Shown here in pieces: positions 1 to 12,543 of a DNA stretch of 64,000 bases. The notes beneath the pieces were generated by a model. The model searched no databases. It saw only the letters and a program-made list of their open reading frames with translations, and was not told the origin of the DNA. How positions within the stretch are numbered: position 1 is the first letter of the stretch; each line of letters begins with the position of its first letter. The position numbers and the translations under genes are program-made. Origin of the DNA: an uncultured Actinomycetes bacterium (GTDB lineage: Bacteria > Actinomycetota > Thermoleophilia > Gaiellales > JAICJC01); contig CAVRGW010000005.1 in assembly GCA_963720885.1 (NCBI GenBank), positions 871,704-935,703 on the forward strand, in the 5' to 3' direction.

Positions 1-879
1 GGCGACCATCGAGAACGCCCGCGCGCTGGCCGAGCCGCCGGCGCCGCGCACCTGCTCGACCAGCACGGCGTCCACGCCGATCAGATCGCAGGTCGCATCG
101 ATCATCTTGCGCATCTCGGGGCCTTCGGACTCGTCGCGCAGAACGACGGCCGAGAACAGGTCGCGTGGGGCGCCGGCCCAGCCGACGATCTCGTTGTGGT
201 CGAGCTCCGGGAACGCATGGCTGAACGCGTGCATCTTGGCGTTCTCGTTGAGCTGCGTCTTCCACCGGTAGGCCACAGCGGCCATCGGCCCGCTGCCGTA
301 GATCAGCGGCACCGTCGGCGCGAGCCGCTCGCCCAGCGACCTGGCCGCCTCGAGGTCGACCTGCTCGACGCCGGCCGCAGCCTCGGCGACCACGTCATCC
401 GGCGCCAGCCCGCACGCCGCGAACGCGCCGGCCGTGGCGCCGAACAGGTAGCCGAGCGCCGCACGCGGCTGCATGCCGTCCGGCACGCGTGCGAACGGGG
501 CGCCCCACTCGGACGCCAGCTCGCCCAGCCTGCCTCCCGCTCCGACGGCGAGCAGGTCGGCATTCTGCGCGTGGGCACGCTGGGCGCAGGACAGGGTCTC
601 GGCGGTGTTGCCTGAATAGCTTACGCACACGACGAGCGTCTTCTCTCCAGCCCACCGGGGGATGCCGAAGCCGCGGACGCGGGTGATCGGCACGGGGCAC
701 AGACCCGCGATCAGGGCGCGCAGCAGCTCGCCGCCCATCGCCGAACCGCCCATGCCCGTGATCACGACCGCCTCGGGCATCGGCATCGTCTCGCCGACCG
801 CACGGCCGATGACGTCGCCCTCCCGCAGGTTGCCGGCGAGGCCGGCGATCGCCGACTGCATGGCGTCGCGATCTACCAC
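1..879 (-). CDS. bifunctional phosphoglucose/phosphomannose isomerase (SIS domain); 3' end lies beyond the window
   Basis: My translation of the minus strand is uninterrupted from GTG 879 (alternative ATG 861) to position 1: ..VVITGMGGSAMGGELLRAL..VVCVSYSGNTAETL..AYRWKTQLNENAKMHAF..ELDHNEIVGW. It is missing from the ORF track because there is no stop inside the window. Confidence 0.7.
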   Translation of the reverse strand, partial: MVDRDAMQSAIAGLAGNLREGDVIGRAVGETMPMPEAVVITGMGGSAMGGELLRALIAGLCPVPITRVRGFGIPRWAGEKTLVVCVSYSGNTAETLSCAQRAHAQNADLLAVGAGGRLGELASEWGAPFARVPDGMQPRAALGYLFGATAGAFAACGLAPDDVVAEAAAGVEQVDLEAARSLGERLAPTVPLIYGSGPMAAVAYRWKTQLNENAKMHAFSHAFPELDHNEIVGWAGAPRDLFSAVVLRDESEGPEMRKMIDATCDLIGVDAVLVEQVRGAGGSASARAFSMVA

Positions 880-1739
880 ACCGGGCCGTCCATCCCGATC
901 ACCTGCTCGGTGACCACGACCTCCGGCTCGACCCGCGCGCCCGGCAGCAGCACGCTGCGCGTCACCCTGGCGCCGGCGCCGACGATGGCGCCAGGGCCGA
1001 CAACGGAATCGCGCACCTCGGCGGCCGGGTCGATCGCTGCGCTGGGATCGATGGTGCCGTTCGGCCCCATCTCGGCGAGGTTCGCCTCGAGGTAGCTCTG
1101 TGGCGTCCCGATGTCGATCCAGGAAACGCGCTCCGACCGGCCGTAGAGTCCGTTGCCAACCAGCTCGGGAAAGACCTCGCGCTCGATCGACACGGCCACG
1201 TCGGGCGGCACCAGGTCGAGCACCTCGGGCTCCATCACGTAGGTGCCGGCGTTGATCGTGTTGACGTCCACCTCGCCCGGCTCGGGCTTCTCGATGAACG
1301 CCTCCACCTCGCCGTGCGCGGTGGTGCGCACCAGGCCGTACCGCGACGGGTCGTCCACGGGCTGCAGCGCGATCGTCGCGGTCGCCCGCCGCGAGCGGTG
1401 GAAGGCGACCAGCGCGGTCAGGTTGAGGTCGGTCAGGATGTCGCCGTTGCAGACGACGAAGGTCTCCCCCAGCTCACGTGCCGCGAACGCGATGGCGCCT
1501 CCGGTGCCCAGCGGCTGGTCCTCGACGACGTACTCCAGCGAGTCGCCGAAGTGGTCGCGGATCGCGTCGGGCTTGTACCCGCAGGCGAGGATGATGCGAG
1601 TCGCTCCGTGGTGGCGCAGATGCGCGACCTGGTGCTCCAGGAACGGGCGGTTCGCGATCGGCAGCATCGGCTTCGGCAGCCACTCGGTCAGCGGGAGCAA
1701 CCTCGTGCCCTGGCCGCCGACCAGGAGCACCGCGATCAC
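873..1739 (-). CDS. mannose-1-phosphate guanylyltransferase / NDP-sugar pyrophosphorylase
   Basis: This is the last 288 codons of ORF 873..2897: VIAVLLVGGQGTRLLPLT..KPMLP..GTGGAI, with a C-terminal hexapeptide-repeat region. GTG 1739 overlaps the ugd stop (GTGA). Confidence 0.85.
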   Translation of the reverse strand: MIAVLLVGGQGTRLLPLTEWLPKPMLPIANRPFLEHQVAHLRHHGATRIILACGYKPDAIRDHFGDSLEYVVEDQPLGTGGAIAFAARELGETFVVCNGDILTDLNLTALVAFHRSRRATATIALQPVDDPSRYGLVRTTAHGEVEAFIEKPEPGEVDVNTINAGTYVMEPEVLDLVPPDVAVSIEREVFPELVGNGLYGRSERVSWIDIGTPQSYLEANLAEMGPNGTIDPSAAIDPAAEVRDSVVGPGAIVGAGARVTRSVLLPGARVEPEVVVTEQVIGMDGPVW

Positions 1740-3574
1740 ACCGCGACCTCGGCTGCCCCCGCGCGGCCGACCGACTCGTACAGGAACCCGGCCCCGCGCG
1801 CCTGCGCCGGGTCGAGCAGGTTGCGACCGTCGACGATGAACGCGGTCGCCATCACGTCGCGCACGGCCGGCGACGCCACCGACCGGAACTCGCCCCATTC
1901 GGTGACGATCACCATCGCGTCCGCACCGGTGACCGCCTCGAGCATCGACGGCGCCAGCTCCACCCGGTCGCCGAGCACGGTTCGCGCGTTCTCCATCGCC
2001 ACCGGGTCGTAGGCGACCACGTCGGCGCCCTCGGCCAGCAGCCGCGACGCCAGCACCAGGCTGGACGCCTCGCGCATATCGTCGGTGTTCGACTTGAACG
2101 CCAGCCCGAGCAGCGCGATCCGCCGGCCGCGCAGCGGGCCGAGGTGGCGCTCGAGCTTCGAGACGACCCGCCGCTTCTGCAGCTCGTTGACCTCGATCAC
2201 GGCGGTCAGCAGCTGGAAGTGGTACCCGGAGTTGCCCGCCAGCTGCTTGAGCGCCTGCACGTCCTTGGGGAAGCAGTTGTGCACCACGATGCCGTCGCCG
2301 GTGACGAAGGTGTGGGCGTCGGGCACCTCGAGCGAGTAGACGACCTCGTCGACGTACTGGTGGCGCCGCAGCCGGCGGATCCGCGACCAGGCGACGCGCA
2401 TCTCGAGCGGGCCCTGCGGCTGCGGGGGCTGCAGCACCCCCATCAACGGGTCGACGGTCGGCACCGGCGGCGAGACGACCACCGGCAGCGGCATGCCGAC
2501 CTCGAGGTTCTCGGCCAGCACGATCTCCGGCGTGTCGCCGACCAGGGCGATGAACGGATGGTCGGTGGTGGTGCGCACGCGCGCGCCCGACTCGACCTCG
2601 ACCTCCACCAGCTCGCCGTCGTACGGCCGGCTGGTCGCGACCGACGCGGGCAGGAAGTCGGGGACGTCCGAGCCCTGCCGCCACGCCAGCACCTCGATGT
2701 CGTCCAGATCGCGCTCGAACAGATCCTCGAGGGAGACCTCCTCGGCCTCGTCCTCGTGACGCACCGTGACGTACTCGTCGCCGGGCAGGCAGCTGCCTCC
2801 GTAGCCGATGCCCGGGCGCAGGAAGTGCCCGCCGATCCGCTCGTCCAGCCCCATCGCGTGGGCGACCACGCCGACGTCGGCCCCCACCTCCTCGCACACG
2901 TTGGCGATCTCGTTGATGAACGAGATCTTGGTCGCGAGGAAGGCGTTGGATGCGTACTTGATCATCTCGGCGCTGGCCGGGTCGGTGCGGACGACCGGCG
3001 AGTCGACGTCATGGTAAAGGGCTTCGACGACGTCGCCGTCGGCGCGCTCCAGGCTACCGATCACGATCCGGTCGGGCTCCATGAAGTCGGCGATGGCGCG
3101 GCCCTCGCGGAGGAACTCCGGATTCGAGACGTAACCGACGTCCTGCAGGCCGCGCGCGGCCATGTCCGCCAGCAGCCGCTCGCCGGTGCCCACCGGCACC
3201 GTGCTCTTCATCACCAGCACCACCCGCTCGTCGAGCTGCGGGATGCCGTCGATCACGCGGTGGACGCGTGACAGGTCGGCGTCGCCGGAGTGTGTGGGCG
3301 GCGTGTCGACGCACACGAACACCACCCGCGCGCGGTCGAACACCTCGGCCATGTCGAGGGTGAACTCGAGGCGGTCGCGGTTGCGCTCGAGCAGCCGCTC
3401 GATCCCCGGCTCGTAGATCGGCACCCGCCCGTCGCGCAGCGCCCGGATCCGCTCCTCGGAGACGTCGACGCAGATCACGTGGTTGCCCAGATCGGCAAAG
3501 CAGACCGCCGTGACCAGGCCCACGTAGCCCACGCCGACGACGCCGATGGCGCTCCTGTCTGCCTGCTCGGCCAT
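1736..3574 (-). CDS. ugd: UDP-glucose 6-dehydrogenase, intein-containing (612 aa; 440 aa after removal of the insert)
   Basis: N-terminal Rossmann motif GVVGVGYVGL. The active-site motif GGSCFPKD is split as GYGGS|C..172 aa..HN|CFPKDV. The C-terminal UDPG_MGDP_dh region is present. Confidence 0.9.
   Translation of the reverse strand: MAEQADRSAIGVVGVGYVGLVTAVCFADLGNHVICVDVSEERIRALRDGRVPIYEPGIERLLERNRDRLEFTLDMAEVFDRARVVFVCVDTPPTHSGDADLSRVHRVIDGIPQLDERVVLVMKSTVPVGTGERLLADMAARGLQDVGYVSNPEFLREGRAIADFMEPDRIVIGSLERADGDVVEALYHDVDSPVVRTDPASAEMIKYASNAFLATKISFINEIANVCEEVGADVGVVAHAMGLDERIGGHFLRPGIGYGGSCLPGDEYVTVRHEDEAEEVSLEDLFERDLDDIEVLAWRQGSDVPDFLPASVATSRPYDGELVEVEVESGARVRTTTDHPFIALVGDTPEIVLAENLEVGMPLPVVVSPPVPTVDPLMGVLQPPQPQGPLEMRVAWSRIRRLRRHQYVDEVVYSLEVPDAHTFVTGDGIVVHNCFPKDVQALKQLAGNSGYHFQLLTAVIEVNELQKRRVVSKLERHLGPLRGRRIALLGLAFKSNTDDMREASSLVLASRLLAEGADVVAYDPVAMENARTVLGDRVELAPSMLEAVTGADAMVIVTEWGEFRSVASPAVRDVMATAFIVDGRNLLDPAQARGAGFLYESVGRAGAAEVAV
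2276..2791 (-). mobile_element. mini-intein (172 aa, no homing-endonuclease domain) inside ugd
   Basis: Starts CLPGDEYV (Cys1, codon tgc at 2791-2789). Has TTDHPF (block B T-x-x-H). Ends VYSLEVPDAHTFVTGDGIVVHN, followed by +1 Cys (tgc 2275-2273). A Pro-rich linker sits where an endonuclease would be. Confidence 0.85.
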
Positions 3575-5529
3575 CAGGCGGGGCGCAATGACCGGGCGAT
3601 CGCGATCATGTCGGGGTTCGACAGGTCATCGCGAAGCGTGTTCTGCACCCAGTAGGCCACGCCTCCCTGGACGATGGCGATCATGTGGATGTGCGAGCCG
3701 TTGAAGTAGAACTTGTACGAGCGGCCGTCCAGCTTGCGGATCAGGTCGGGGCTGGCCAGGATCGGCGCGTCGACGAAACGAGTCTCCTCGATGCCCCAGT
3801 AGGCACCGGCAAGGTTCGGCATGGCGAACACCGCGTACATCGAGTTCCAGCCCTTGCCCGCGGCAGCGATGTTGTACGTGCGGATCGGCATCTCGGGCGT
3901 GAAGTCGTCGAACTGCGAGCCCGTCTGCTGCACCGTCGGGTAGAGCACCGGGAAGTGCAGGCTGCGCTTCGCGGTCTCGAAGTAGCTCAGATACGCCTGT
4001 GAGTCGCGGACGATGTCGGCCGGCAGCCCGGTCGGCGTCGACTGCTTGGGCGGCGCGACCGCCGTCTTGCCGGTGAACGGCTTGCCGACGATGACAACCA
4101 GATCCGTGCCGTAAGTGAAGGCGGCCGGCACCGGCGCAGTCTGCGCATTGCCCATGATCTTGGCGACGTCGGTCGCGGCCTTCTGCTGGCCGGGATGGAA
4201 GTACACCCAGTTCTGCGAGTAGTCGAACGTCGGCGCCGGCACCTGGCTGACGTCGACCTGGTATCCGAAGCGATCGAGCGCCGCGCCGGCCTCGGCCGCC
4301 GAGCCGGTGCGGCCGTTGCCGTTGACGGACGTCAGCGAGACGCCGGCCGGTTCGACCGCCGGCCTGAACTTCGGGGTGTTCGCCGGCTTCTTGCCGGTCG
4401 GCACGGTCGGCTTGGCCAGCGACTGCGGGTGCGTGAACTGGTAGACGGCGGTGTGCATGTCCTCTGGCGTGGTCGTCACCACCGAGGCGTCGCCGATCAT
4501 CCCGGCCCCCGCCGTCAGCCGCGACGACACCACGTGCCCGCGGCTCTCGTACGCCAGCGTCGCGTAGGAGATCATCGTCTGCACGCTCGGCGGCCCGTTG
4601 CGGCCGGTCACCTGGACGCTGTCGGCGATCGTCTCGGCGATGTCCTTGTAGGTGCCGATCTCGGTCAGGTCGATGCCGTGCAGCTTCTCCGACGCCCGCG
4701 CCTGGAACGCCTGCAGGAACGTCTGCTGTCGGGCGTTGCGGTAGAAGTCGGAGTCGGTGTGGCGGTAGCGCGCGAAGCCCAGCGCGTCGGTGCCATGCAG
4801 CAGCTGGTAGCCGGGCTTGACGTCGATCTGGGCGTACTGCTCCGTGCCCGGCGTGTTCGTGTGCTGGTAGTACTGGTCGACCGGCACGTAGACGCCGCCG
4901 AACGCGTTGACCAGCCGGGTGAAGCCACTGAAGTCGACCACCATCAGGTAGTTGACGTCGACGCCGGTGACCGACTCGACCGTCTTCAGGGCGAGCTTCA
5001 CGCCGCCCGTTTCGTACGCCGCGTTGATCTTGTTCTCGCCGTAGCCGGGGATGTCGACCCACAGGTCGCGGGGCAGCGACAGCAGCGAGATGTAGTGCGT
5101 CTGCGGGTCGATCCGCACCAGCATCAGCGTGTCCGAGCGGGAGTCGTTGACGCCGTCGCCCTGCCGCTTGTCGGAGCCGATCACCAGCCCGACGGCGGCC
5201 TGATTGGCCGTCGGGATCTGGACGAGATCGCCCTGCGCGTCCTGCGTGCTCTTGTCCAGGTGGCTGATCTGGCCGACCAGACCGTGCGCCCAGTAGCCGA
5301 CGACGCCGCCGATCGCCAGCAGCAGGATCAGCAGGCTGCCGAACGTCCACAGCGCCACCCGCTTCCAGCGCACGCGTCGCTTACCTCCGCCGCGGCGGGC
5401 GTCGTACACGACCATCTCGGGTCGGGATCTGGGGGGCTTAGGCGGCGTTTCGGTCGGCACGCGGTCCTTGGTCCTCAGGAATGCGCCCGACTCACGGGCG
5501 CGTCGCAGTATAGAACGGGTCTTCGTCAC
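3574..5529 (-). CDS. LytR-CpsA-Psr (LCP) family cell-wall glycopolymer ligase with LytR_C-like region and an extra C-terminal domain
   Basis: N-terminal TM segment, then GSDKR..SRSDTLMLVRIDP..ISLLSLPRDLWVDIPGYG.NKINAAY. The stop shares one nucleotide with the ugd ATG (TGATG). Confidence 0.85.
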   Translation of the reverse strand: MTKTRSILRRARESGAFLRTKDRVPTETPPKPPRSRPEMVVYDARRGGGKRRVRWKRVALWTFGSLLILLLAIGGVVGYWAHGLVGQISHLDKSTQDAQGDLVQIPTANQAAVGLVIGSDKRQGDGVNDSRSDTLMLVRIDPQTHYISLLSLPRDLWVDIPGYGENKINAAYETGGVKLALKTVESVTGVDVNYLMVVDFSGFTRLVNAFGGVYVPVDQYYQHTNTPGTEQYAQIDVKPGYQLLHGTDALGFARYRHTDSDFYRNARQQTFLQAFQARASEKLHGIDLTEIGTYKDIAETIADSVQVTGRNGPPSVQTMISYATLAYESRGHVVSSRLTAGAGMIGDASVVTTTPEDMHTAVYQFTHPQSLAKPTVPTGKKPANTPKFRPAVEPAGVSLTSVNGNGRTGSAAEAGAALDRFGYQVDVSQVPAPTFDYSQNWVYFHPGQQKAATDVAKIMGNAQTAPVPAAFTYGTDLVVIVGKPFTGKTAVAPPKQSTPTGLPADIVRDSQAYLSYFETAKRSLHFPVLYPTVQQTGSQFDDFTPEMPIRTYNIAAAGKGWNSMYAVFAMPNLAGAYWGIEETRFVDAPILASPDLIRKLDGRSYKFYFNGSHIHMIAIVQGGVAYWVQNTLRDDLSNPDMIAIARSLRPA

Positions 5530-5544
5530 GGATTGCCGGTCTCC

Positions 5545-6648
5545 TCACCGGTTCTCAGCGGTCGCCAATCGTTGGGCGAAGGCCACGAGCGCGCTCCGGT
5601 AGCGGGCCAGCGACTCGACCTCGACGTACTCCTCCGGCCCGTGATGCCCGCCTCCGGCCGGGCCGAACTCGATGCTGGGGATGCCGCGGTCGAGGAAGAA
5701 CACCGCATCGGAGGCGCCGTCGCGGCCCACCGCGGGCGCCTCGCCGCCGCCCGCGTCGCGGACGGCTTCGCGCAGCACGCGGACATGTTCCTCGCCCGGA
5801 TCGAGCGCCGCCGGCGGCAGCTCGTAGAGCGGCGTGATGGTCATCGCGCCGAGGCCCCGCACCTGGCGCAGAACCTCGTCCGGGTCCTGGTTGGGCAGGT
5901 AGCGGATGTCGACGTCCATCCGGCAGTGGTCGGGCACTTTGTTGACCGCGTCGCCGCCCGAGATGCGGCCGATGTTGATCGACGGCCGGGCGAACAGCTC
6001 GGACTGCGCGGTCGAGAACGGCAGTTCGAGGATCCGCTGGTAGAGATCGAGGGCTCGGAGGATCGCGTTCTCGCCCAGCCACGGCGTCGAGCCGTGCGCG
6101 CCGCGGCCCTCGACGTCGATCCGCAGCACCAGCACGCCCTTCGACTGCACGCCGATCTCGAGGTCGGTCGGCTCGCCGCAGATGACGAAGTCGCCGACGT
6201 GCCCCTCCTCGGCCAGGAAGGCGGACGCCTTGCCGCCGGCCGGCTCGTCCTCCCGCTCCTCGTCGGGGACGATCAGCAACTTGACCTTGACCCCGGGGAT
6301 CGTGTCGCGGGCGTCGGCCAGGTCGGCGAGGGCGGCGAGCATGCCGGCCAGACCGCCCTTCATGTCGTAGGCGCCGCGGCCGTAGACCCGCCCGTTGACG
6401 CGCCAGGGCGAGAACTGCTCGGCGCGGCCGGGAACGACGTCGACGTGTGCATTCCAGACAACGGTGCGCGGTCCGTCTCCCACGGCGGCGACCAGCGACG
6501 GCAGCCCGCGGTCGTACTGGACATGGGAGATGGAGCGCGCCTCCAGCCAGCCCTTGAGGAACGCGAACGCCTCATGGATGCCCTCGTCGCGGGAGGTGTC
6601 GTACGAGATCAGGCGCTCGAGGAGGGCGACTTCGTCGGCGGCGGCCAC
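5545..6648 (-). CDS. M20 family metallopeptidase (ArgE/DapE/ACY1-like)
   Basis: WNAHVDVVP..GRGAYDMKGG..VPDEE..GEPT..GRGAHGS motifs. GTG start at 6648. Confidence 0.8.
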   Translation of the reverse strand: MAAADEVALLERLISYDTSRDEGIHEAFAFLKGWLEARSISHVQYDRGLPSLVAAVGDGPRTVVWNAHVDVVPGRAEQFSPWRVNGRVYGRGAYDMKGGLAGMLAALADLADARDTIPGVKVKLLIVPDEEREDEPAGGKASAFLAEEGHVGDFVICGEPTDLEIGVQSKGVLVLRIDVEGRGAHGSTPWLGENAILRALDLYQRILELPFSTAQSELFARPSINIGRISGGDAVNKVPDHCRMDVDIRYLPNQDPDEVLRQVRGLGAMTITPLYELPPAALDPGEEHVRVLREAVRDAGGGEAPAVGRDGASDAVFFLDRGIPSIEFGPAGGGHHGPEEYVEVESLARYRSALVAFAQRLATAENR

Positions 6649-6655
6649 GGCGGCG

Positions 6656-6661
6656 ATTGTA
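6656..6661 (-). promoter_or_regulatory. candidate -10 box (TACAAT) for a leaderless M20 peptidase transcript
   Basis: The minus strand reads TACAAT-cgccgcc-GTG, so the hexamer ends 7 nt before the start codon and there is no SD. Confidence 0.3.
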
Positions 6662-6675
6662 GGCTAGGAGCGGCC

Positions 6676-7863
6676 GTGTCCACGCCGTCTCTGTGGCAGA
6701 TCCAGGCTCCGTCGCGGGGCCATGACCGGCTCCGGGGCGACGTCTCGGCCGACGTCTGCATCGTCGGCGCCGGTGTCACCGGGGGTGCGTGCGCGTGGCG
6801 GCTGCTCGAGCACGGACTGCGGCCGGTGGTGCTCGACGCGCGCGAGGCGGCGGCGTCGGCGAGCGGCCGCAACGGCGGGTTCGCGGTCGGCTCGAGCGAC
6901 GCAGCGGCCGACCGGGCGCTCGCCGAGATGGCGGCGATGGCGGCCGAGCTGGGCGTGGCCGACGCTGTGCAGAGGCGGGGAAGCCTATGGCTGGGCGGTG
7001 AGAACGACGCGCACGAGCTGCAGGACGCGGTGAACGCCGCGCACGCCGACGGGCTGCCGGTCGAGGACGCGCTCGACCGCGTGCCCGCGCCGATGCGCGG
7101 CAGGTTCGCCACGGCGGCGTTCTTTCCCGGCGACGGCGAGCTGGAGCCGGCGCGCTGGGTGCGGGCGCTGGTCGATGGGGCGGCGGCCCGCGGCGCGGCG
7201 GTGCACGAGCACTCGCCGGCGACGGCGGTGGAGTCGCGCGCCGGCGGGTGGTCCGTGCGGACGCCCGGCGGGGCGGTGTCCTGCCAAGCGGTGGTCGTGG
7301 CCTGCGATGGGCTGATCCCGCGGGTGGCGTCGTGGCTCGACGGCTACATCTACCCGGTGCGCGGGCAGATGCTGGCGACGGAGCCGCTGCCGCCCGAGCG
7401 GCGGGTGCTGTGGTGCCCGACCCATTCGGGGTTCGGGTTCTGGTACTACCGGCCGACGGGCGACGGGCGGATCGCGCTGGGCGGCGGGAGGCTGGCCGAC
7501 CTCGAGGCGGAGTACACGGATGTCGAGGAGACGACGCCCGCGGTGCAGGCGGCGCTCGAGCGCTTCCTGGCGGACGACCTCGGCCTCGCCGGCGTCGCCG
7601 TCACGCACCGCTGGGCGGGCGTGATGGGCTTCTCGGCCGACCTCGTGCCGCTGGCCGGCGAGGTGCCCGGCCGGCCGGGGCTGTACGTCAGCGGCGGCTA
7701 CAGTGGCGTCGGCAACGTCAACGGCTGGCGCTGCGGGCGGCTCGTGGCCGACCTGATCGCCACCGGCGCCCACACCGACGCTGCGCGCTTCGACCCGGCG
7801 CGCTTCGGCGACGGGCCGCCGCCCGAGCCGCTCGAGAAGGCCGCCAGCCGCGAACTGCTCTGA
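6676..7863 (+). CDS. FAD-dependent oxidoreductase (DAO/glycine-oxidase-like family)
   Basis: This is the last 395 codons of ORF 4195..7863. GTG 6676 is preceded by AGGAG (6666-6670). Dinucleotide-binding motif VCIVGAGVTGGACAWRL; C-terminal GGYSGVG. Confidence 0.8.
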   Translation: MSTPSLWQIQAPSRGHDRLRGDVSADVCIVGAGVTGGACAWRLLEHGLRPVVLDAREAAASASGRNGGFAVGSSDAAADRALAEMAAMAAELGVADAVQRRGSLWLGGENDAHELQDAVNAAHADGLPVEDALDRVPAPMRGRFATAAFFPGDGELEPARWVRALVDGAAARGAAVHEHSPATAVESRAGGWSVRTPGGAVSCQAVVVACDGLIPRVASWLDGYIYPVRGQMLATEPLPPERRVLWCPTHSGFGFWYYRPTGDGRIALGGGRLADLEAEYTDVEETTPAVQAALERFLADDLGLAGVAVTHRWAGVMGFSADLVPLAGEVPGRPGLYVSGGYSGVGNVNGWRCGRLVADLIATGAHTDAARFDPARFGDGPPPEPLEKAASRELL

Positions 7864-7867
7864 GGGT

Positions 7868-7927
7868 GCGACAGGGGGTCAGGAACCGCGTCGCAGCACT
7901 GCGACGCGGTTCCTGACCCCCTGTCGC
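7868..7927. repeat. REP/REPIN-like perfect palindrome (class I), 29-bp arms
   Basis: GCGACAGGGGGTCAGGAACCGCGTCGCAG-ca-CTGCGACGCGGTTCCTGACCCCCTGTCGC. It begins 5 nt after the upstream stop. Confidence 0.9.
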
Positions 7928-7960
7928 GTATTCCTTGACCGCTCGTGACTGACACGCGGC

Positions 7961-8686
7961 ATGCCTGGACCGTACCGTCACGCGATGCCACGTCAGCCGC
8001 GGATCCAGTTCGAAGACGCTGCGTACCACGTGATGCAGCGAGGAGTCGACAAGCAGTTGATCGTCCGCGACGACCAGGACCGGCGGACGCTGATCGGGCT
8101 ACTCGCGCGGACCGTGATCGAACACCGCTGGAGCCTGACAGCGTATTGCCTGATGGACAACCATCTCCACGCGCTGATCCGAACGCGGAAGCCGAACCTT
8201 GCCGTTGGGATGAAGCTCTTTCAGCAGACATACGTGCGCCGGTTCAACGACCGGCACCGCCGCATCGGCCCGTTGTTCCAGGGCAGATACAAGGCCAAGC
8301 TCCTCACCCGAAACGAGCACCACATCGCCACCCTCCGGTACATCCCGCTGAACCCGGTCGCACACGGCGCGTGTGGCCATCCGGCGAGCTGGCGCTGGTC
8401 AAGCTACCGAGCGACGATCACGCCAGCGATCGCGCCCGACTTCTTGGATGCCGATGCGGTCGCAGAACTGTTCGACGAGGGTGTAGAGGGGTACCGGCGG
8501 TTCGTCGAACACGGCATCCCTGACGCCCTCGAGCGAGCGAGACCCCGCCTGCCTCTCGAGGTGTTACTGACCCGCACCGATGGCATCCACGCCGCCCGCA
8601 AGCACGGCTACTCGCTTCGGCAGATCGGCGAAGCCGTTGGGCTCCACCACTCGGCCATCGCCCGCATCCTTCGGCGCGGTACATAG
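7961..8686 (+). CDS. IS200-like Y1 (HUH) transposase, REP-associated tyrosine transposase (RAYT)-like, with C-terminal HTH region
   Basis: PRIQFEDAAYHVMQRG, HUH motif DNHLHALI, GPLFQGRYKAK, catalytic-Tyr region LRYIPLNPV, C-terminal YSLRQIGEAVGLHHSAIARIL. The start is more likely ATG 7985 (MPRQPRI). Visibly lower GC3 than neighbours. Confidence 0.8.
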   Translation: MPGPYRHAMPRQPRIQFEDAAYHVMQRGVDKQLIVRDDQDRRTLIGLLARTVIEHRWSLTAYCLMDNHLHALIRTRKPNLAVGMKLFQQTYVRRFNDRHRRIGPLFQGRYKAKLLTRNEHHIATLRYIPLNPVAHGACGHPASWRWSSYRATITPAIAPDFLDADAVAELFDEGVEGYRRFVEHGIPDALERARPRLPLEVLLTRTDGIHAARKHGYSLRQIGEAVGLHHSAIARILRRGT

Positions 8687-8687
8687 C

Positions 8688-8747
8688 GCGACAGGGGGTC
8701 AGGAACCCTGGCGCATCGGTGCGCCAGGGTTCCTGACCCCCTGTCGC
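8688..8747. repeat. REP/REPIN-like perfect palindrome (class I), 28-bp arms
   Basis: GCGACAGGGGGTCAGGAACCCTGGCGCA-tcgg-TGCGCCAGGGTTCCTGACCCCCTGTCGC. It lies between convergent genes. Confidence 0.9.
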
Positions 8748-8757
8748 AGTCTGCTCG

Positions 8758-9393
8758 CTACGCGGCCGGCGGCGGTGGCAACGGCTGGTTCCATTCGGGG
8801 GAAGGGACGTCGTCCGGCTCATCCTCGGGTTGGAACCAGGGGTAGCGGTCGGTGGTGAGCAGCTGCGCGTAGGCGGTGTAGCGCACGTAGTAACGCTGCG
8901 GGAGCTCCATGATCTCGAAGATGCTCCGCGGGAGACGCCCAGTCACGATGATCACGAACCACGCGACCACCGCCATCAGGCTCTCCAGGACACCGAGCGC
9001 CAACTGCACGAAATACGCCGGGTACTGGAGGATGTATCGGAAGAAGGTCGTCAGCCGCGAAAGATGCTCGGGAACCTCGGCGGTCACCTGGATCGGGTAG
9101 CCGTCGTCGGGCGATCCGGCGCCGAACGGCGGGAACCTGTCCGTCAGCAGGCTGGCGTAGCAGCGCACGCGGGTCGCGTACCGGAGGTATCCCGTCTGGA
9201 ACCCGAACATTCCCTCGGGGTAGCGACCCGTGAAAAGGATCGCGAACCAGGCGATGAACGACAGAACCGTCGCCGCGATCGCGTAGAAGATGAGCACGAA
9301 CAGGTGGGGGATCACCATGAAGATCCGGAAGAAGGTCGTCAGCCGGGACGCATGCTCGTGGTACTCCAGCCGGGTGTGGACGGGATACGCCAC
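8758..9393 (-). CDS. DUF4389-type membrane protein (two internal repeats)
   Basis: SRLTTFFR..IPH..WFAILFTGRYP occurs twice, followed by C-terminal DRYPWFQPE..VPSPEW.QPLPPP. GTG start 9393. Confidence 0.7.
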   Translation of the reverse strand: MAYPVHTRLEYHEHASRLTTFFRIFMVIPHLFVLIFYAIAATVLSFIAWFAILFTGRYPEGMFGFQTGYLRYATRVRCYASLLTDRFPPFGAGSPDDGYPIQVTAEVPEHLSRLTTFFRYILQYPAYFVQLALGVLESLMAVVAWFVIIVTGRLPRSIFEIMELPQRYYVRYTAYAQLLTTDRYPWFQPEDEPDDVPSPEWNQPLPPPPAA

Positions 9394-9402
9394 GCGTTGT
9401 CC

Positions 9403-10095
9403 CTACGCCTCCGACGGGGGCGGAAGCGGCTGATCCCACTCGGGCGACGGCACGTTGCCCTGCTCGCTCTCCGGCTGGAACCATGGATACCGGTCGGTCA
9501 CCAGGTTCCCGAATGACTGGAGCCGGATCGAGTACCGGTACGGCAGCTCGATCAGCTCGAACAGCGTCGCCGGGAACCGGCCCGTGATCAGGATCGCGAA
9601 CCACGCCACGATCGACACCAGCCAGCCGAACAGCCACAGGAAGAACACGACGATGTACGCCGGTAGCAGGTACAGCTCCACGAGGGCCGTCACGGGACTG
9701 ATCCGCGTCAGCACGTTGGTGATCACGTCCGGCACGCGCAGCGCGGTGGTCAGGCGCGAGAGGTGGTCGGCGCGCTCGATCGAGTACGCCACGTTCGGGT
9801 ACGCGCCCTCCTCGTCACGCCCGTGGAACGGCGGGAACCGGTCGGTCAGCAGCCAGTAAAACGCGCCGATCCGGCTGGTGTAGCGCAGGTAGCGCTCCTG
9901 CCACTCCAGCGACCCCTGCGGGTACTGGCCCTTGGCCAGGATCGCAAACCACGCGTACAGCGTCACGAACCCGGCGGCGATCGAGTAGCCGATCCACCAG
10001 ATCACGTGCGGGATCATCATGATCCCGCGGAAGAATGTCGTCAGCCGCGAATAGCGCTCGGCGCGCTGAACTCTGAGCCGTACCGGATATGCCAC
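9403..10095 (-). CDS. DUF4389-type membrane protein, tandem paralogue of 8758..9393
   Basis: Same motifs as its neighbour (SRLTTFFRGIMMIPH, WFAILAKGQYP, WFAILITGRFP, DRYPWFQPE). Start set to GTG 10095 (VAYPV, as in the paralogue), downstream of the atpC stop. Confidence 0.7.
   Translation of the reverse strand: MAYPVRLRVQRAERYSRLTTFFRGIMMIPHVIWWIGYSIAAGFVTLYAWFAILAKGQYPQGSLEWQERYLRYTSRIGAFYWLLTDRFPPFHGRDEEGAYPNVAYSIERADHLSRLTTALRVPDVITNVLTRISPVTALVELYLLPAYIVVFFLWLFGWLVSIVAWFAILITGRFPATLFELIELPYRYSIRLQSFGNLVTDRYPWFQPESEQGNVPSPEWDQPLPPPSEA

Positions 10096-10120: not shown

Positions 10121-12543
<2,423 letters not shown>

Follow-up and report, generated by a model that had tools for sequence, protein, structure and literature searches.

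Uridine diphosphate (UDP)-glucose dehydrogenase is among the intein hosts listed in an InBase-based review (PMC2874743). Soucy et al. (2014) recognised one 'udp' allele, corresponding to one position, with seven members from Halobacteria, six from other Euryarchaeota, including M. jannaschii, and two from bacteria, namely Dictyoglomus thermophilum and a Fervidibacteria bacterium (PMC4071816). Novikova et al. (2016) recorded 10 inteins in UDP-GlcDH (COG1004), which is found in the top 15 of archaeal hosts and outside the top 15 of bacterial ones (PMC4760082). Here we describe a class-1 mini-intein with a Hedgehog/intein (HINT) fold in the UDP-glucose 6-dehydrogenase (Ugd) of a Gaiellales-like actinobacterium. 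The ugd gene lies on a stretch of 64,000 nucleotides of contig CAVRGW010000005.1, which was analysed as a whole and is referred to as the window; all window coordinates below are on its minus strand. The element interrupts the enzyme at its catalytic cysteine and probably still splices. A literature search found no paper describing an intein in a Ugd of Thermoleophilia.

An insert at the catalytic cysteine of Ugd

The ugd precursor gene (1736..3574) encodes 612 amino acids plus a stop. In addition to the UDPG_MGDP_dh N-terminal, central and C-terminal domains, its product matches the Pfam family Intein_splicing, and it scores 429.6 bits against NCBIfam TIGR03026. Protein alignment and junction mapping by regular expression divide the gene into an N-extein ending in GIGYGGS (2792..3574, residues 1-261), an insert of 172 residues (2276..2791, residues 262-433) and a C-extein (1739..2275, residues 434-612), with the junction strings GIGYGGS|CLPGDEYVT and GDGIVVHN|CFPKDVQ. 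The calculated masses are 66.6 kDa for the precursor, 19.1 kDa for the insert and 47.5 kDa for the spliced Ugd. An earlier examination of the letters and open reading frames, hereafter the sequence-only reading, had arrived at a 612-residue reading frame that leaves 440 residues once the insert is removed; both the list of open reading frames and the junction mapping agree with it, and its coordinates 2276-2791 are exact to the base.

The insertion is clean at both the protein and the DNA level. We aligned the ugd product with 13 homologues, seven that carry the intein and six that lack it. In the six intein-less orthologues, which are 75-78% identical to the window protein in this alignment, the gap coincides exactly with the 172-residue segment and the sequence is unbroken on both sides, reading GYGGS-CFPKD; over all intein-less orthologues compared, extein identity is 73-78%. 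Thus, the interruption of GGSCFPKD proposed from the sequence is borne out by the junction mapping and by this alignment, which also displays the Cys1, His-Asn and Cys+1 boundaries. A lineage-specific structural loop, considered as another explanation of the segment, was rejected. The DNA of an empty allele in a related genome (L002) runs ...GGCAGC|TGCTTCCCCAAGGAC, in agreement with both window junctions. Comparison of this empty site, CCCGGCATCGGCTACGGCGGCAGC|TGCTTCCCCAAGGACGTG, with the window, CCGGGCATCGGCTACGGAGGCAGC|TGCCTG...CACAAC|TGCTTCCCCAAGGACGTG, reveals a precise in-frame insertion of 516 nt.

The insert falls in the active site of the host enzyme. The conceptually spliced Ugd aligns end to end with solved structures, 3gg2 being the best match (E value 4e-111), followed by 4a7p and 2y0c, and the string gyggscfpkd is identical in the alignment of 3gg2 with the spliced protein. 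In this enzyme family, as numbered for Streptococcus pyogenes, Gly257, Gly258, Cys260 and Asp264 never vary, with Cys260 acting as the covalent catalyst (PMC4794789); in the human enzyme, the corresponding Cys276 is an established covalent catalyst (PMC3265891). The window residues G259-G260-S261|C434-F-P-K-D438 make up the same GGxCxxxD motif. Since C434 (codon 2273..2275, aligned with the cysteine of GGSCFPKD) occupies the cysteine position of this motif, it is, judging by motif correspondence and the published work, both the putative +1 splice nucleophile and the catalytic cysteine of Ugd, as the sequence-only reading had proposed.

Several lines of evidence identify the insert as an intein. 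When residues 262-433 were searched alone, three curated profiles scored above their cut-offs: Pfam Intein_splicing PF14890 (49.1 bits, cut-off 35.8), NCBIfam intein_Nterm TIGR01445 (37.0, cut-off 24.5) and NCBIfam intein_Cterm TIGR01443 (31.0, cut-off 15.6). A sequence search of the PDB with the insert returned the TFIIB mini-intein 5o9i (E value 4.6e-6), then CDC21, PolII, RadA and NrdJ-1. An AlphaFold2 model of the intein, built from an alignment of 12 intein sequences, has a mean predicted local distance difference test (pLDDT) score of 90.3 and a predicted template modelling (pTM) score of 0.82; its sole stretch of low confidence, residues ~110-130, lies inside a Pro-rich linker. In a Foldseek comparison of the model with the PDB, 5o9i again ranks first (E value 3e-10), followed by 4e2t, 6rpq, 7oec, 2lcj and 6rpp, and these top matches have E values of about 1e-9 to 1e-10 and template modelling (TM) scores of about 0.74-0.76. 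All of the top 50 PDB matches are inteins or Hedgehog and bacterial intein-like (BIL) HINT domains, with the Hedgehog and BIL domains ranked lower.

All hallmarks of a class-1 intein that had been proposed (Cys1, TTDHPF with its TxxH motif, a terminal His-Asn and a +1 Cys) are present in the sequence and in the alignments. The block A nucleophile Cys1 (C262, codon 2789..2791) is the same residue in all 72 intein sequences examined. In intein numbering, TTDHPF occupies residues 75-80, and block B, T75-T-D-H78 (T336..H339 of the protein), is encoded at 2558..2569. The C-terminal splicing region (residues 132-172, 2276..2398), recognised by TIGR01443, contains block F, VYSLEVPDAHTFV, with V151-Y-S-L-E-V-P...H160-T-F-V, and block G, GIVVHN, which ends in H171-N172 and is followed by Cys+1 (protein C434). 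Class-3 inteins, which have no nucleophile at position 1 and use a block F Cys of the WCT motif, were considered and rejected: Cys1 is present and is the only cysteine of the intein, so that a mechanism relying on an internal Cys is ruled out.

Endonuclease loss, inheritance and selection

We surveyed the 120 top-ranking homologues of the complete protein for inserts. Besides the window, 54 of them carry an insert of 167-198 residues, 17 carry one of 320-481 residues with the Pfam LAGLIDADG_3 domain (PF14528), and 49 have no insert; all inserts share one junction. In the long forms, 150-300 extra residues are located exactly between positions corresponding to residues ~120 and 121 of the window intein, inside its Pro-rich stretch, and contain two LAGLIDADG-type motifs, FWRVVGLYLAEG and ALLAGLWRGDGSWS. 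The Pro-rich linker of the window intein (residues 107-131, S107-M131; 2399..2473) reads SPPVPTVDPLMGVLQPPQPQGPLEM, with 8 Pro in 25 residues. Because relatives carry the LAGLIDADG endonuclease exactly at this linker, the window element is an endonuclease-deleted mini-intein and the linker marks the site of the deletion. In a Pfam scan of the 172-residue insert, Intein_splicing was the sole match, with no LAGLIDADG, HNH or any other endonuclease family. Both the claim of a mini-intein free of LAGLIDADG and HNH regions and the placement of the Pro-rich linker at the endonuclease position, the latter supported by alignment with full-length LAGLIDADG inteins, therefore stand.

A survey of related genomes for empty alleles, which the sequence-only reading had suggested, did uncover them. 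Of the 80 genome loci among the matches listed, 69 are empty at the Ugd site and eight have a full-length intein, with no mini-intein genome among these matches. The full-length inteins at the same Ugd site (371-491 residues) are found in L003, L004, L005, L007, L008, L009, L011 and L015 (about 6001-8700 in each), which come from Gaiellaceae, Thermoleophilaceae, Solirubrobacterales and one metagenome-assembled genome (MAG) labelled 'Acidobacteria'. Several of the full-length Ugd-site inteins end in Ser-Asn (VCSN, IVSN, VSSN, ITSN) rather than His-Asn, and among the protein matches some inteins terminate in Asp-Asn or Gly/His-Gln, a hint that the C-terminal chemistry of these relatives is variant or decaying. 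Inteins 96-99% identical to that of the window occur in P0124 (326 residues), P0328 (345 residues) and P0003 (528 residues), derived from ENA and other assemblies. Such near-identical inteins are present only in truncated Ugd gene calls, which probably stem from the window's own species or a sister species and from contigs where frameshifts or ends cut the gene; a look-up of the exact window protein gave no record.

When a neighbour-joining tree was built from extein sequence only (116 sequences), 49 mini-intein Ugds, including that of the window and several from named Gaiellales, formed one exclusive clade. Full-length LAGLIDADG inteins do not form one clade and are scattered over the extein tree. 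Two further mini forms, P0064 and P0098, are placed among the full-length ones, which indicates independent endonuclease losses. Within the 49-member clade, intein and extein distances are strongly correlated (r = 0.94; Mantel test, 0 of 999 permutations), although the intein diverges 2.8 times as much as the exteins; extein divergence reaches about 36% and mean intein divergence is 41%. Such co-divergence points to vertical co-inheritance without homing. The third-codon-position GC content (GC3) of the intein, 0.98, equals that of the host, thus indicating a long-term resident rather than a recent arrival.

Residues of the splicing centre have been maintained throughout this divergence. C1, L2, G4, T75, D77, H78, P79, H171 and N172 are unchanged in all 49 mini-inteins, and T75, D77, H78 and P79 are also unchanged in the alignment with full-length inteins. 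The nearest relative, L082, is 90% identical at the protein level; against it, the pairwise ratio of nonsynonymous to synonymous substitutions (dN/dS, Nei-Gojobori), a measure distorted by a GC3 of about 0.97, is 0.13 for the intein versus 0.18 and 0.11 for the two exteins. Taken together, these observations fit an intein that is fixed, vertically inherited and probably still splicing.

Predicted splicing and competing explanations

Acyl shifts, transthioesterification and asparagine cyclisation are established steps of class-1 intein chemistry. Following this route, the whole 66.6 kDa precursor would be translated first. Cys262 would then undergo an N-S acyl shift with the assistance of T336 and H339 of block B, and attack of Cys434 on the resulting thioester would produce a branched intermediate. 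Cyclisation of Asn433, assisted by His432, would free the 19 kDa intein, after which an S-N shift would create a normal peptide bond and restore GYGGS-CFPKD in the 47.5 kDa enzyme, leaving Cys434 available as the catalytic thiol. We consider that the element still splices in this way with a probability of roughly 85%, and splicing is likely to be efficient. The unspliced precursor would be inactive because a 172-residue (19 kDa) domain is tied to the backbone of the catalytic nucleophile. From its position it follows that Ugd activity should depend on splicing. The intein itself is more plausibly a fixed and immobile passenger than an evolved regulator, and it would persist because only a precise deletion is tolerated at the catalytic site of Ugd.

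Three observations weigh against continued splicing, or at least do not speak for it. First, position 4 of block F is Ser (S153 in VYSLEVP, codon 2333..2335), where the aligned TFIIB and CDC21 inteins have Asp (YDLTVP and VYDLQVP, respectively). Asp at this position is common in class-1 inteins, being neither universal nor defining. S153 is unchanged across eight diverse inteins aligned and at least 90% conserved among the 49 mini-inteins, and Y152, S153 and E155 are unchanged even in distant inteins, in Ugd and WecC-type hosts alike. Since this Ser is conserved across the intein family, it is probably compatible with splicing; the substitution appears to be a family trait, not decay, and the splicing active site may vary here in a way particular to this family. 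Second, relative to L001 (77% identity), dN/dS is 0.69 for the intein, compared with 0.27 and 0.20 for the exteins, an estimate in which the synonymous component is unreliable because GC3 is 0.95-1.0. Third, an AlphaFold2 model of the whole precursor has a pTM of only 0.42, with pLDDT below 50 at residues 208-260 and 435-465, and is uninformative either way. In this model, confidence is high for the intein and for both Rossmann-like domains, and the low pLDDT falls on the central-domain helices that flank the insertion. This could result from a shallow alignment or from active-site helices that cannot be modelled with the intein present.

An explanation that we regard as unlikely, although the strongest of the competing ones, is that splicing is conditional and the intein has been domesticated in the Gaiellales-like lineage as a post-translational switch on the catalytic Cys of Ugd. 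A reversible disulfide between Cys1 and Cys+1 under oxidising conditions, or temperature, would keep Ugd as an inactive precursor, and UDP-glucuronate supply and LytR-CpsA-Psr (LCP)-dependent attachment of envelope glycopolymers would then be coupled to the state of the cell. Redox- and temperature-controlled splicing has been discussed for other inteins (PMC4760082, PMC10663303), and at the splice junction here Cys1 and Cys+1 form the only pair of cysteines. Translational coupling of ugd to the LCP and nucleotidyltransferase genes would also be in line with such a role. Vertical inheritance of a fixed, endonuclease-free intein over up to ~36% extein divergence agrees with the intein being kept for a function, but the near impossibility of deleting it imprecisely from a catalytic residue explains its persistence equally well, and no sequence feature separates a switch from a passenger. 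Moreover, close relatives thrive without the intein, as seen in the 49 insert-free orthologues and in the empty loci that predominate among the genome matches listed. A second ugd copy might also exist outside the window; within its 64 kb, neither a second ugd copy nor a second intein was found. The 'gating' of envelope synthesis by regulated splicing is speculation.

Less probable still is a splicing-dead relic, in which a decayed HINT domain would be retained as an inert insertion in the mature protein or in a pseudogene. The Ser in place of Asp in block F and the faster evolution of the intein compared with its exteins could be taken as signs of decay, and an apparent frameshift in atpD elsewhere in the window shows that sequence quality or gene integrity is imperfect. 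However, the nucleophiles and assisting residues are unchanged in every member of the mini-intein clade, the low dN/dS of the intein against its nearest relative indicates constraint, the exteins are under strong purifying selection, the reading frame is intact and the operon context is conserved. In addition, catalysis would be lost if a 172-residue domain stayed on the catalytic Cys. Finally, a different HINT module or an assembly chimera is effectively refuted: the BIL domain 2lwy is a weak match (sequence E value 0.94, Foldseek rank 39), whereas intein-specific profiles score above cut-off, the flanking sequence is that of a housekeeping enzyme under high conservation and provides a +1 Cys, a canonical HN|C junction and a clean empty site, and the same insertion recurs in dozens of independent assemblies (JGI, ENA, NCBI). 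BIL domains, by contrast, occur in variable or secreted proteins and lack either the C-terminal junction and +1 nucleophile typical of inteins or a conserved extein setting.

Gene neighbourhood and comparison with known inteins

Immediately upstream of ugd lies an LCP gene (3574..5529; PF03816, 138.8 bits, plus LytR_C), the stop of which overlaps the ugd start (TGATG). Downstream, a gene for a sugar-phosphate nucleotidyltransferase of 288 residues (873..1739; PF00483, 142.2 bits) begins with a GTG that overlaps the ugd stop, and it is followed by a partial phosphosugar isomerase-like gene (bact-PGI_C; 1..861), identified by tblastn with the L001 product at 80% identity, which runs off the window start. 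Gene order around ugd is conserved in L001 and L082. The neighbourhood, with its LCP, nucleotidyltransferase and phosphosugar isomerase-like genes, fits an envelope-glycopolymer operon, as had been suggested from the sequence.

Elsewhere in the window, atpD, which encodes the ATP synthase beta subunit (10539..11958, minus strand), appears to be frameshifted at 11255..11285. Its homology to the L001 product changes frame at about 11269/11270, where the window has ACCGGGCCTGACG and L001 has ACCGGCCTGACG, that is, one extra G in a run of G; the wrong frame still gives an open reading frame of 517 residues. An assembly indel is the probable cause and calls for caution regarding base accuracy in the window; the alternative is that an essential gene is genuinely frameshifted. 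A DUF4389-family gene is present in two tandem copies (8785..9393 and 9418..10095, minus strand), with 72% and 44% identity to the product of the one copy in syntenic L001, and the window lacks the Tricorn/PD40-like gene found in L001. The GC content of the window is about 0.65-0.79, which accounts for many long spurious open reading frames on both strands. No tRNA genes and no Rfam families at gathering score were found in the 64 kb, which leaves the window with no taxonomic marker of these kinds. In viral contigs, the search returned distant, generic block F/G matches alone, with at most 32% identity over any long stretch and no sign of a phage vector.

An exhaustive profile search was run with the intein against 1.84 billion cluster representatives. 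It yielded 6433 relatives at E values of 1e-3 or below and 33 at 1e-30 or below. In every relative with flanks that could be read as this enzyme family, the insertion precedes the catalytic Cys, with the flanks GGS|C...|CFPKD in Ugd and GGH|C...HN|CIPxDP in WecC/TviB-type dehydrogenases. The named bacterial hosts include Gaiellales, Gaiellaceae, Thermoleophilaceae, Solirubrobacterales, Ktedonobacteraceae, Anaerolineae, Thermomicrobiaceae and Blastocatellia MAGs. Other relatives are flanked by ...YGN|C...HN|C[IV]GVPT or lie in FlaI/TadA-type ATPases of archaea. No archaeal sugar dehydrogenase relative was found in the homologue search, which returned bacterial names and archaeal-named FlaI/TadA ATPases.

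The suggestion that this kind of intein may be unannotated held in part. The source names the protein plainly as 'UDP-glucose 6-dehydrogenase', but PF14890 is precomputed on dozens of close homologues. Under such a plain name, the extra length and the insertion could mislead predictions of orthology, structure and activity for Thermoleophilia MAGs. A Ugd intein is not new in kind; what is new is the bacterial host lineage and the large endonuclease-free clade. The findings do not change the understanding of how inteins work and would not surprise specialists. They do provide a clean bacterial case of an intein on the covalent nucleophile of an enzyme, in a metabolic gene for envelope sugars and not in a replication gene. 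The presence of three states at one site (full-length, an endonuclease-free clade and empty) can be used to study the intein life cycle of invasion, endonuclease loss and fixation. Furthermore, a 172-residue mini-intein with Cys at positions 1 and +1 from a GC-rich soil actinobacterium is a candidate tool for protein engineering.

Among structurally characterised inteins, the window element resembles the archaeal mini-inteins of TFIIB from Mvu and Mja (5o9i, 5o9j), Pho RadA (4e2t), Pab and Pho CDC21-1 (6rpp, 6rpq) and PolII (2lcj, 7oec). All have the HINT fold (TM scores of 0.72-0.76, E values down to 3e-10), the same order of blocks, a short linker where the endonuclease would be and HN at the C-terminus, and sequence matches reach an E value of 4.6e-6. 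It differs from these solved archaeal mini-inteins in sequence (17-21% identity) and in host protein. Inteins of the WecC/TviB type (P0147, P0149, P0168, P0178, P0209, P0272 and others; L083, 3001-5694) occupy the homologous position just before the catalytic Cys and match with profile E values of 1e-20 to 1e-33, but are hosted by a different enzyme subfamily and are more distant in intein sequence. The full-length Ugd-site inteins of Gaiellaceae, Thermoleophilaceae, Solirubrobacterales and Chloroflexota MAGs share the junctions GGS|CL.G.E...HN|CFPKD and homologous splicing blocks at 38-43% identity to the window intein. Unlike the latter, with its 25-residue Pro-rich linker, these inteins carry a LAGLIDADG_3 region of 150-300 residues. 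Of the alleles described in the literature, the udp or 'Mja UDP GD' allele is the most similar, having the same UDPG_MGDP_dh host family and class-1 inteins, with both full-length and mini forms recorded across domains. Set beside the published members by their description, the window site probably corresponds to the Mja UDP GD site. In contrast to the recorded udp members, however, the window intein is hosted by a GC-rich, Gaiellales-like actinobacterium of the Thermoleophilia and is part of a large group, comprising at least 49 sequence clusters, of endonuclease-free inteins that seem to have been inherited vertically.

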